Shown piece by piece: positions 1 to 1,541 of a stretch of DNA of 1,541 nt. Positions within the stretch are counted from its first letter, which is position 1. Each line of letters opens with the position of its first letter. The notes under the pieces were generated by a model. That model was not told where the DNA came from, ran no database searches, and saw only the letters and a list, made by a program, of their open reading frames with translations. Source of the DNA: Escherichia coli (GTDB lineage: Bacteria; Pseudomonadota; Gammaproteobacteria; Enterobacterales; Enterobacteriaceae). The DNA lies in NCBI RefSeq assembly GCF_965641715.1, contig NZ_OZ282461.1; one strand, written 5' to 3'. Position numbers and translations under genes: made by a program.

Positions 1-37
1 GTGCTCAATGTGGCTTCCGGTTCTCTTCCGCTTCCTC

Positions 38-80
38 GTCGATTCGCTCGCTACGCTCGGTCATCGACTTGCGGCGAGCG
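38..80. other. Hairpin-rich segment resembling what I recall as the primosome-assembly-site (single-strand initiation) region downstream of the pMB1/ColE1 origin
   Basis: Seen in sequence: cttccgcttcctcg (26-39) and ...cgctcgctacgctcggtcatcgacttgcggcgagcgg... parallel pBR322 cttccgcttcctcgctcactgactcgctgcgctcggtcgttcggctgcggcgagcgg (recalled). Dyads gtcgat (38-43) with atcgac (63-68), and cgctcgc (45-51) with gcgagcg (74-80), are preserved despite substitutions. Function is inference. Confidence 0.4.
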
Positions 81-386
81 GTGTCACCTCTCGCATGTTG
101 TCGGTGATCCCGTTGTTGTTCTTTCGGGGATGAGTCGTCAGATAGCCCTTCAAACACGCTCAGAAGCTCTCAGACGCACGAAACGGGTTTTAGATGCCCG
201 TCAGGGCATGGAAGGCGCGAAAAACGCTTACAGAGGCTCTCAGGAGGTCAGGCGCGCCGATACCCCTAACCAGGGGCTTTCAGGTCGCCAGGAACCGCGC
301 CAGCCCCCTGCAAAGCCCATTTGCACGGTACAGGCAGCCACTCGGTTGGTAGGTGGTCGTAGACCGTCGGTGTTACAGCGATGGGG

Positions 387-440
387 GTCTGGGGTTCTCC
401 CCAGACGGTTTCCGGTTGCGCTCAAGGCGCTGCCGGAACC
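387..440. other. Two tandem stem-loops in the GC-rich non-coding region (perfect 8-bp stem at 387-406; imperfect longer stem at 407-440)
   Basis: Seen in sequence: gtctgggg-ttct-ccccagac, then ggtt-t-ccgg-tt-gcgc-tcaag-gcgc-tg-ccgg-aacc. Whether they function as RNA or as single-stranded DNA structure is unknown. Confidence 0.35.
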
Positions 441-576
441 GTGGCGGCTCGGTCGTTCTGGAGATCGGGGAGCAAAAACACGCAAGGGATTTTGAGGCGG
501 CAAAAGAGCAATGCAGGATAGACAATCATGGTCAGAACGTTAACACGTAGCCCCTGATTGTCCGCCTGCCGCTGGC

Positions 577-1056
577 TCAATTTGAAAACATGGCCATGAT
601 TCGGCGCTGAATATCACCGTCTTTGTTGACCAGTGTTTTAGTGACAAACGCCGCGTAGTTTTTAGATGTGTTGTATCCCTTCCAGACTTCATGTGGATCC
701 AGTGCATACGCACAAACCTTACCGGCAACAGGAATTCTGACTAACGCGTTTTTTGATTCTAAGTAGTTGAGCCAGCGCTTAATTGTGCTTCGGCTAACAC
801 CCAATTTATCTGCTAAAAACTGCTGATCGGCAACGACAGCACCGCATGAGGGATCTATGTGCTCAGCTAAAAACGAGTAAAGCGGTATTGCTACAACTCC
901 CTGCTTGTCCTTCGACAGTTCTCGGATCCTTTCCCAGCCCTTCTGATAAACCTGGGTGAATGGGCCGTTATTTTTCGGATCTGGTTCCGATTCTTTGTTT
1001 AATTTTTCCAGTTCTTTTAGACGCTTTTTTCGCTGCTCTTCAGTCCCGATATACAT
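577..1056 (-). CDS. Putative plasmid replication initiator or DNA-binding regulator with a helix-turn-helix motif (RepA-like, as in small cryptic enterobacterial plasmids); 159 aa
   Basis: Seen in sequence: ORF from the track, ATG at 1056-1054 and TGA stop at 579-577 on the minus strand. A GGAG Shine-Dalgarno (plus-strand ctcc, 1064-1067) lies 7 nt upstream of the ATG. The segment ...VADQQFLADKLGVSRSTIKRWLNYLESKNALVRI... (approx nt 736-834) has the pattern of a helix-turn-helix. The N-terminus is lysine/glutamate-rich. It is the only long ORF in the AT-richer block and is preceded by a repeat-rich region. Inference: Rep-like function from motif and context; a vague recollection of pKL1-type 1.5-kb plasmids with a small RepA is not verified. 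Confidence 0.75.
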   Translation of the reverse strand: MYIGTEEQRKKRLKELEKLNKESEPDPKNNGPFTQVYQKGWERIRELSKDKQGVVAIPLYSFLAEHIDPSCGAVVADQQFLADKLGVSRSTIKRWLNYLESKNALVRIPVAGKVCAYALDPHEVWKGYNTSKNYAAFVTKTLVNKDGDIQRRIMAMFSN

Positions 1057-1063
1057 GGTAAAT

Positions 1064-1067
1064 CTCC
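1064..1067 (-). promoter_or_regulatory. Shine-Dalgarno (GGAG) for the 577-1056 CDS
   Basis: Seen in sequence: minus-strand reading is ...gaccgtGGAGatttaccATG, with 7 nt between GGAG and the start codon. Confidence 0.6.
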
Positions 1068-1086
1068 ACGGTCTAATAATGGCTCA

Positions 1087-1115
1087 AATATAAGCTATCA
1101 TAGCTCAAACGTAAA
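1087..1115 (-). promoter_or_regulatory. Putative sigma70-type promoter for the HTH gene (-35 TTTACG, 17-bp spacer, -10 TATATT, read on the minus strand)
   Basis: Seen in sequence: minus-strand reading is catggTTTACGtttgagctatgatagctTATATTtgagcc. The -35 hexamer corresponds to plus 1110-1115 and the -10 to plus 1087-1092, about 30 nt upstream of the ATG. Matching to consensus was done by eye; no transcription start data. Confidence 0.35.
1093..1105. promoter_or_regulatory. 13-bp palindrome agctat-c-atagct inside the putative promoter spacer (candidate autorepressor operator)
   Basis: Seen in sequence: perfect dyad agctat/atagct around a central c at 1099. Its position between the putative -35 and -10 is typical of repressor operators (inference). 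Confidence 0.4.
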
Positions 1116-1131
1116 CCATGATAGGTCGACC

Positions 1132-1153
1132 TAGCTCACACATGCGTGAGCTA
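1132..1153. repeat. 22-bp near-perfect palindrome tagctcacacatgcgtgagcta (10 of 11 dyad pairs)
   Basis: Seen in sequence: the reverse complement differs from the forward sequence only at the a/c pair (1140/1145). Overlaps the first direct-repeat copy. Confidence 0.65.
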
Positions 1154-1182
1154 ACCTTAGACCACGCATGCGTGAGCTAACC
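1137..1182. repeat. Two 20-bp direct repeats (cacacatgcgtgagctaacc at 1137-1156 and cacgcatgcgtgagctaacc at 1163-1182), period 26 bp; iteron- or operator-like
   Basis: Seen in sequence: 19 of 20 identity. The second copy contains a perfect 12-bp palindrome, cacgcatgcgtg (1163-1174). Related half-motifs (g)agcta/tagct recur at 1082-1088, 1093-1105 and 1194-1199. Functional role is inference. Confidence 0.65.
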
Positions 1183-1275
1183 CATAATGCAAGTAGCTAA
1201 AAAATCAATAACTTACAAAATCGCCCTTAAATATCTTTTCTGCTGAAAGTGTTGCGCGAAGCGGAACACTTTTTT

Positions 1276-1299
1276 GGGGTGTCGGGGCGAAGCCCTGAC
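1276..1299. repeat. Left arm of a 24-bp inverted repeat (ggggtgtcggggcgaagccctgac); the arm is also an internal hairpin
   Basis: Seen in sequence: the reverse complement of 1504-1527 is ggggtgtcggggtgaagccctgac, matching 23 of 24 positions. Within the arm, gtcggggc and gccctgac are themselves near-complementary. Confidence 0.7.
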
Positions 1300-1340
1300 A
1301 CAGTCACGTAGCGATAGCGGAGTGTATACTGGCTTATTCC
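1276..1340. other. ColE1/pMB1 bom-like origin of transfer (oriT) with putative nick motif CTGG/CTTA at 1329-1336
   Basis: Seen in sequence: ggggtgtcggggcgaagccctgacacagtcacgtagcgatagcggagtgtatactggctta closely resembles the pBR322/pMB1 bom segment gggtgtcggggcgcagccatgacccagtcacgtagcgatagcggagtgtatactggcttaac, recalled from memory. Established knowledge: the ColE1 relaxase MbeA nicks within CTGG/CTTA. The nicked strand was not determined here. Confidence 0.6.
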
Positions 1341-1457
1341 TCTGCAAGCCTTACCAGCCGTGATTTTTGCCAGATTTCGCGCTCTCCACGTTCAACAGCT
1401 CCATCATGTTTTTGCCGTCCGTTCACCGCTAAAACGCCTCAGAAATCGGGACAGGAT

Positions 1458-1500
1458 GTGGGAATGTCGGACCGCGCACGCGCACTCAGACATTCCCCAC
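1458..1500. other. Stem-loop: gtgggaatgtc (1458-1468) pairs with gacattccccac (1489-1500); the loop carries an alternating pyrimidine-purine tract cgcgcacgcgca (1473-1484)
   Basis: Seen in sequence: 7-bp perfect core gaatgtc/gacattc plus flanking G:C pairs with one bulge. No downstream T-run, so it is not a canonical intrinsic terminator. Confidence 0.4.
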
Positions 1501-1503
1501 CTA

Positions 1504-1527
1504 GTCAGGGCTTCACCCCGACACCCC
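1504..1527. repeat. Right arm of the 24-bp inverted repeat (gtcagggcttcaccccgacacccc)
   Basis: Seen in sequence: partner of 1276-1299 with one mismatch; the arms are separated by 204 bp. Confidence 0.7.
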
Positions 1528-1541
1528 GCATCCGTGCGTAA

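Follow-up and report, generated by a model that had tools for sequence, protein, structure and literature searches.

Circular plasmids of about 1.5 kb that belong to the pKL1 / Col(MG828) family are as a rule set aside as cryptic. A described member is pKL1 of Escherichia coli KL4 (NC_002145.1, 1549 bp; Burian et al. 1997-2003), which has a single RepA-type gene with a control region upstream of it, and a non-coding arc rich in guanine plus cytosine (GC). According to the passages of PMC3832669 that cite Burian et al. 2003, the replication origin (oriV) of pKL1 lies upstream of rep and includes a box for the host factor IHF together with Rep sites. Plasmids that possess an origin of transfer (oriT) and lack a relaxase gene, including those with R64-like, R6K-like and ColE1-like oriT families, form an established oriT-only or "pOriT" class (PMC10123127, PMC12282955); they are small, abundant in E. 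coli and dependent on helpers, and in this species only one oriT is present in about 88% of the plasmids that bear any (Ares-Arroyo, Coluzzi and Rocha 2023, PMC10123127). Here we describe a stretch of E. coli DNA of 1,541 nucleotides (contig NZ_OZ282461.1 of assembly GCF_965641715.1), referred to as the window throughout its full length. Our results indicate that it is a plasmid of the pKL1 / Col(MG828) family, in which a replicon module richer in adenine plus thymine (AT) is joined to a GC-rich non-coding arc of what are probably borrowed transfer and priming sites.

The window is a complete circular plasmid of 1541 bases, as in relatives the base aligned to position 1541 directly abuts the base aligned to position 1. 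At full length it is best matched by E. coli plasmids of 1.5 kb with the Col(MG828) type, at 94-96.8% identity; a search of 72,556 plasmid records and of 5,426 complete E. coli genomes gave no identical plasmid, with best matches of 95.6-96.8%. The family layout of a circle of about 1.5 kb with one gene for a RepA-type (helix-turn-helix) initiator is matched, the arc is shared with pKL1-type plasmids at 92-99% identity over 1-700 and 1301-1400, and RepA of pKL1 (WP_000469298.1) is 78% identical to the window Rep; pKL1 also has the Col(MG828) replicon label. pKL1 differs in the N-terminal half of rep and in the iteron/control region, which are only 44-73% identical to the window, and bears another allele (allele C) of the IncI-type repeat A described below. 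A near-identical replicon module is found in plasmids of 1565 bp (NZ_CP029109.1 and the E. coli ABU 83972 plasmid NC_017629.1), whose Rep is 99.4% identical and which match positions 564-1400 at 98-99%. These plasmids differ in having an IncI1-like repeat-A allele, another allele of the segment resembling the ColE1 primosome site ssiA and an IncX4-like oriT hairpin with a 21-nt insert; in all three places the window has the version of the pKL1/1546 type. It is a recombinant not recorded before, of the already known pKL1/Col(MG828), oriT-only mobilizable kind.

An earlier note on this sequence, made by eye, had described GC-rich blocks at 1-576 and 1250-1541 flanking an AT-richer centre at 577-1250, and calculation bears out the uneven composition: the GC content is 59.2% at 1-576, 43.2% at 577-1250 and 56.4% at 1251-1541 (chi-square p = 2e-8). 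An unconstrained likelihood segmentation, with which a 100-nt GC profile agrees, placed the change points at 473 and 1275, with 44.4% GC inside and 59.5% outside; its statistic was 35.0, and 200 shuffles gave 10.8 on average and 24.3 at most. The contrast thus stands but the proposed boundaries have to be moved, and the number of blocks does not hold either, since in a circular molecule the flanking blocks join into a single GC-rich arc, which makes the pattern bipartite. The compartments are a replicon module at about 474-1275 (44% GC; 40-45% for the module taken as about 526-1275) and an arc formed by about 1276-1541 plus 1-525 (about 58-60% GC). The stretch at about 474-576 is already of intermediate GC content (51-54%) and contains the hairpin of an IncX-type oriT at the module junction. 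A dinucleotide signature corrected for base content did not separate the compartments (rank 22 of 78 rotations) so that the contrast lies in GC content only, and at this length such a comparison, the k-mer analysis that the note had proposed, adds nothing beyond GC.

The note had also taken the contrast as a sign that the blocks differ in origin. This use of it fails, as the same contrast is present in every relative regardless of rep type (arc 55-59%, replicon 35-45%) and within the plasmids that bear the source elements. The bom-ssiA region of ColE1 has 58% GC compared to 48% for the whole of ColE1, an IncK oriT has 61% compared to 51% for its surrounding 5-kb locus and the homologous segment of IncX4 has 52% compared to 42% for its plasmid. 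GC-richness follows the function of the elements and not the base composition of foreign donor genomes: hairpin-rich recognition sites for relaxases and priming are GC-rich everywhere, origins and plasmid rep genes are AT-rich, and the contrast results from this.

Modular assembly, which the same note had put forward, is nevertheless well supported by the comparison of plasmids. When nine relatives, which represent at least four rep types, were compared bin by bin (100 nt), identity was 85-100% in the arc but only 30-70% in the rep/control region, where the replication modules are effectively non-homologous as DNA, and the Reps found in the same plasmids as the conserved arc are 99%, 78%, 46% and 25% identical to that of the window; the blocks do not diverge equally. 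Informative sites compared against two putative parents revealed at least four recombination breakpoints in the window. Of 224 informative sites in 652-1354, 222 agree with the 1565-bp type, and the pKL1/1546 type is followed both by 1461-1541 together with 14-69 (37 of 37 sites) and by 526-563 (all 38). The patches exchanged are those of the IncI-type oriT with the ssiA-like segment and of the IncX-type hairpin, and among relatives the oriT alleles are spread independently of rep type. Module exchange is real, and recombination has also swapped oriT hairpin alleles.

Two clear oriTs and one candidate are present in the window together with no relaxase gene, and no open reading frame (ORF) besides rep has family support. 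The ColE1-type oriT (bom) occupies 1271-1336 on the + strand and is 94% identical to ColE1 1528-1462 (66 nt) and 91% identical to pPCP1. Its outer inverted repeat GGGGTGTCGGGGCGAAGCCCTGAC lies at 1276-1299 and, from this repeat through the nick region ...GTATACTGG/CTTA (the slash marks the nick), all bases but two are conserved with respect to ColE1. The nick motif CTGG/CTTA is at 1329-1336, and from the literature on the ColE1 superfamily we take the predicted nick to fall between 1332 and 1333 of the + strand. More than 1700 mobilizable ColE1-like plasmids match the bom stretch. A second ColE1-type element, at 20-130 on the minus strand, aligns to ColE1 1260-1390 and to pPCP1 and resembles the ssiA or n'-type primosome assembly site; its 60-nt core, window 23-82, is 84% identical to ColE1 1367-1308. 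The matched ColE1 segment is 113-172 nt downstream of the ColE1 replication origin (ori, at about 1195 as deduced from RNAI at 645-749), ssiA/n'-pas having been placed about 150 nt downstream of ori on the lagging-strand template (PMC3167613), and this primosome site of ColE1 probably contributes to priming of the strand that is transferred (PMC4595007). The displaced strand of ColE1 corresponds to the window minus strand, which bears GAAGCGG at 34-28. This heptamer is, we presume, the consensus of primosome assembly sites. By its homology and its ssiA position, the segment at 20-130 looks like a candidate primosome site. Both elements have the same order and orientation as in ColE1 (NC_001371.1) but in the window about 130 extra bases, with the IncI-type oriT, lie between them.

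This IncI-complex (R64-like) oriT, of the IncK/B/O allele, is located at 1428-1530 on the minus strand. Its stretch 1443-1528 shares 98.8% identity with the IncK2/Z plasmid pSTEC2018_553-a and 95.3% with the IncB/O plasmid pB-Ec2 and with pO113; in IncK2/Z, IncB/O and pO113 the homologous oriT stretch is 15 nt upstream of nikA/mobA-nikB. R621a, in which nikA and nikB are annotated, matches at 77% with a different repeat A. The architecture is that of the IncI-complex oriTs, with 95-99% identity to those of IncK2/Z and IncB/O: the minus strand presents, in order, the outer repeat, the repeat-A hairpin (1460-1497) and the nick motif CATCCTG/TCCC (ATCCTG at 1457-1452), and a 19-bp-type inverted repeat is found at 1506-1524 within the repeat arm 1504-1527. 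The repeat-A hairpin is maintained by covariation, with 7 doubly changed pairs across alleles and 95.5% of cells paired compared to 31-44% in slid controls, and as single-stranded DNA the oriT folds with z = -4.6. At least three repeat-A alleles exist among relatives, each nearest to a different group of large IncI-complex plasmids. Unlike its counterparts in those plasmids, the IncI-type oriT of the window stands alone in a 1.5-kb plasmid without nikA/nikB or transfer genes. The spacer that separates it from bom (1337-1427, 52% GC) is 91-95% identical across relatives of different rep types.

Two side observations concern the clear oriTs. Both begin with a 24-nt element, GGGGTGTCGGGGYGAAGCCCTGAC, at 1276-1299 in the ColE1-type and at 1504-1527 in the IncI-type oriT; the copies form an inverted repeat, are 96% complementary and lie 204 nt apart, and they could act as a recombination handle or pair in single-stranded DNA. 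In a relative of 1822 bp (L019, CP077384.1) the IncI-type oriT, window 1437-1526, is gone and both the ColE1-type bom and the IncX-type site are kept, which shows that single oriT units can be acquired or shed.

The third site, at 503-563 on the minus strand, is probably an IncX-type (R6K-like) oriT, as judged from IncX4 homology, a hairpin and an ATCCTG motif. The hairpin arms at 521-531 and 552-562 are followed on the minus strand by TATCCTG/CATTG (ATCCTG at 519-514), so that the whole reads GGACAATCAGGGG...CCATGATTGTC TATCCTG CATTG. The site matches two inverted copies in IncX4 plasmids; in L026 they lie at 1511-1564, upstream of taxA by about 50 nt, and at 24123-24182, near rep. In a database-wide search the match had an E-value of 4e-8. 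IncX plasmids have two oriTs, one near taxC and one near rep (PMC3402527). A stretch of 19 nt, GATTGTCTATCCTGCATTG, is invariant across the window and both IncX4 copies and follows the hairpin as in the duplicated IncX oriT. The window differs from IncX in having a single copy of about 60 nt, no long inverted repeat and neither taxA/taxC nor ddp genes. Three alleles of the IncX-type hairpin occur among relatives, all of them foldable, of which that of the 1565-bp type matches IncX4 including the 21-nt insert; in the window the site folds as single-stranded DNA with z = -3.6.

These results lead us to propose that the arc is a stack of cis-acting sites that would work on single-stranded DNA. 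The ColE1-type oriT would allow export of the + strand, and the IncI-complex and IncX-type sites export of the minus strand. As the oriTs are oriented both ways priming would be needed on both strands; the ssiA-like primosome site would serve the minus strand and other conserved hairpins may prime the other. With no relaxase gene of its own, the plasmid would spread by the relaxosomes and mating channels of co-resident ColE1-like, IncI/K/B/O or IncX plasmids, and the arc would circulate among plasmids with different rep modules and exchange its oriT recognition hairpins by recombination. The window differs from most pOriTs in that two clear oriTs and a third candidate are packed within about 800 nt, a density which is unusual yet within the described range.

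Could the mosaic be only apparent? In a single vertical lineage, the rep gene and origin might evolve faster, for example to escape incompatibility, with the arc held back by constraint. Replication control regions are known to diversify, and within rep itself the C-terminal half is about 87% identical to the pKL1 type compared to the 44-73% of the N-terminal half and control region given above. However, Reps only 25-46% identical adjoin arcs that are 90-100% identical in nucleotides, informative sites change parent in sharp blocks and oriT alleles are independent of rep type. Rate differences alone are therefore insufficient, and we consider this explanation very unlikely. Still less probable, to the point that we give it hardly any weight, is that the arc is a degenerate or divergent RNA-primed origin of the ColE1 type (RNAII/RNAI) and thus a second, cryptic replicon. 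Such an origin would fit the ColE1 arrangement in which bom and the ssiA-like segment follow each other and are oriented, and the position expected for the ColE1 ori falls in the conserved segment 131-324. Against it, the window gave no match to RNAI (RF00106) even at E <= 1, a model that gives ColE1 a score of 73.8 bits; the only stretches with homology to ColE1 and pPCP1 are 1271-1339 and about 8-130, and ColE1-type sequence amounts to only about 170 of the roughly 800 arc bases; a promoter scan found no promoter-like sites in the arc; and replication of pKL1 is reported, in the passages mentioned above, to depend on RepA. With RNAI/RNAII, rop, mob genes and cer all missing from it, the window is, as far as these comparisons go, not a ColE1 replicon. 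The earlier note had spoken of ColE1-type cis elements: the bom and the homology at the ssiA position agree with it but the description was incomplete, as the IncI and IncX sites had been overlooked and replication control of the ColE1 type was not found.

The arc might also be GC-rich because it is coding, through an ORF of 164 codons (1..495) that is open in the window, or because it specifies a structured RNA, a notion to which the fold of 325-580 (better than shuffles, z about -3) lends some credit. Yet single-base indels cut this ORF after 17-110 codons in 7 of the 9 relatives, substitutions by codon position number 28/38/36 with no third-position excess and the three longest arc ORFs gave no Pfam match; neither an Rfam family nor a promoter was found in the arc. 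We regard this explanation as highly improbable: the arc is non-coding and rep is the only credible gene in the window. More serious, though in our judgement unlikely, is the possibility that the oriT-like sites are inert relics of recombination with helpers, in a plasmid that is not mobilizable and is kept by high copy number alone. The transfer function of the sites is predicted from sequence, one relative has lost the IncI-type site and some are typed non-mobilizable, all of which would agree with relics. On the other side, the nick motifs and recognition hairpins are intact and the hairpins are kept by compensatory changes across alleles, the oriT alleles match different living helper groups at 92-99%, and hundreds of plasmids of 1.5 kb, a size at which each base is under pressure, have kept the sites.

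A plasmid of the pKL1 / Col(MG828) family with an arc of borrowed transfer and priming sites is therefore the reading we prefer, and several points weigh against it. Nicking, mobilization and priming by hairpins are all predictions from sequence. The match to IncX is short and covers about 60 nt at 79-85% identity, for which reason we grade that site as probable and not certain, and its nick position is predicted from the general ATCCTG motif of the MOBP family. The hairpin predicted in the ssiA-like segment does not exceed those of shuffles in strength (z = -0.6 to -0.95). The priming proposed for some 370 nt of the arc (131-500) draws solely on siting beside replication regions in other plasmids and on fold z-scores, and blastn of a phage collection with 1-576 found no similarity to G4-type phage origins. 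MOB-suite types some close relatives as "non-mobilizable", and the high identity of the arc could come partly from very recent spread and not from selection.

More tentatively, and with rather less than even confidence, we speculate that the arc is a portable transfer cassette. It would hold three working oriTs for three helper families, in both directions and with priming sites for each strand, would move between unrelated small replicons and would have its hairpins replaced allelically to track the helpers in circulation; the 24-nt repeat common to the ColE1-type and IncI-type oriTs might then be the recombination handle. If this were correct the cassette would be a hitch-hiking device of unusual density and adaptability, and the "Col(MG828)" label would follow the cassette and not the replicon. 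If all three oriTs work, they would provide a compact natural system for the study of mimicry and swapping of relaxase recognition sites. These 1.5-kb plasmids are very common: about a quarter of complete E. coli genomes have plasmids that match parts of the window sequence. On the preferred reading, the non-replicon DNA of these plasmids is mostly a shared, exchangeable array of transfer and priming sites for several helper families, and this array would therefore explain both their composition and their spread. For this group, replicon typing and the labels "mobilizable" and "non-mobilizable" may likewise depend on the shared arc and not on the replication gene.

The remainder of the arc includes two conserved regions. 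A non-coding segment at 131-324, with its core at about 186-263, is 93-100% conserved in the family and contains the hairpin ATGCCCGTCAGGGCAT. It is 62-86% similar to non-coding DNA by the replication regions of IncX4 (L009, L010 and L026), IncFIA (L029, downstream of ccdAB-resD) and MOBC (L011, near RepA) plasmids, with similarity also in plasmids of Arsenophonus and Sodalis, and it gave no Rfam or Pfam match. Direct repeats, AAACACGCTCAGAAGCTCTCAG at 152-173 and AAACGCTTACAGAGGCTCTCAG at 222-243, 70 nt apart, flank the conserved hairpin and could be a pair of protein-binding sites. Weak inverted copies (61%) of window 183-319 are present in the IncX4 plasmid L026 at 28273-28415 and 30353-30495, upstream of small genes; their occurrence in the apparent leading region hints at a repeated cis element. 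At 364-441, three adjacent GC-rich hairpins (364-384, 389-404 and 405-442) fold more stably as + strand (z = -6.1) than as minus strand (z = -3.6). They are 98-100% conserved in relatives, have matches only in small plasmids and are a candidate single-strand priming signal of the + strand. Three stem-loops also mark priming signals of the G4 type, but the presence of three strong hairpins is not specific. Matches of 1-576 in the phage collection proved to be mislabelled small plasmids and vector-like hits, and a long single-strand promoter hairpin like Frpo, sought in 1-330, was unsupported (z = -0.9 and -1.4).

The replicon module is made up of rep and its upstream region, both on the minus strand. 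The rep gene (577-1056, 44.6% GC) encodes a helix-turn-helix initiator of 159 aa, similar to pKL1 RepA and RepL, with a Pfam match to HTH_36 at E = 1.7e-6 and weakly to RepL at E = 0.007. The Rep is 99.4% identical to that of the 1565-bp plasmids, 78% to pKL1 RepA, 46% to Reps annotated as RepL and 25% to a type of 147 aa. In comparison with pKL1 the gene is itself a mosaic, whose C-terminal half, of about 87% identity, corresponds to 577-883. Upstream, 1057-1245 (40% GC) contains the rep promoter and the presumed origin/control region. A scan for promoters and terminators, with counts at chance level, gave a -35/-10 pair at 1115-1087 as the sole promoter-like site in the window. A repeat search found 25-nt repeats at 1132-1156 and 1158-1182, accompanied by an A-tract, and TAGCTCA with at most one mismatch occurs 10 times compared to 3.35 expected, 7 of these in 1080-1200. 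A pattern search located an IHF-consensus match, and hence an IHF-like site upstream of rep, at 1203-1215. This stretch is 44-60% identical to pKL1 and its IHF and Rep sites are putative, as read from sequence alone; the region would fit the published description of the pKL1 oriV. A pattern search of the window found no DnaA box, and inspection by eye noticed no Xer-core-like sequence (cer/Xer). The sole Rfam match in the window, to the proV RNA inside rep, scored 18.8 bits compared to a gathering score of 88.5 and was put down to chance. At the junction of the replicon module and the arc, a + strand hairpin followed by a T-run (1246-1275), AAAGTGTTGCGC GAA GCGGAACACTTT TTT, is a putative terminator. 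Homology among plasmids of different rep type starts at about 1273.

Several further observations concern the family as a whole. The Col(MG828) label spans relatives (L015, L016, L017, L018, L019, L027 and L028) whose Reps are mutually only 25-46% identical, and the reference pMG828-1 (NC_008486.1, 1902 bp) is a RepL-type plasmid; this suggests that the typing marker sits in the shared GC-rich arc and not in the replication gene. Near-identical copies of the family are deposited under odd names, as "Escherichia phage ECO111 5-P" (1626 bp), "Escherichia phage ECO104 4-5-2" and "Enterococcus phage Efm 3-10" (1541 bp), and others as Corynebacterium renale NC_004833.1 (1488 bp) and a Staphylococcus aureus plasmid of 1822 bp. 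These deposits are probably due to contamination or mislabelling. A full-length copy of the plasmid with 94.2% identity lies in the chromosome of E. coli L26 (NZ_CP146250.1, 1218136-1219708), one of 12 chromosomal places overall, and reflects either integration or misassembly. In the 150-kb IncF plasmid p253 (L007), scrambled arc fragments (397-445, 500-584, 1-90 and 1411-1527) beside IS26 at 3501-5153 look like the remains of an integrated small plasmid. Finally, a plasmid of 2313 bp (L020, NZ_OW967010.1) contains window 1-463 at 86% together with a RepL-type rep and a small mobA gene, so that in some plasmids the arc is accompanied by a gene for a relaxosome accessory protein.

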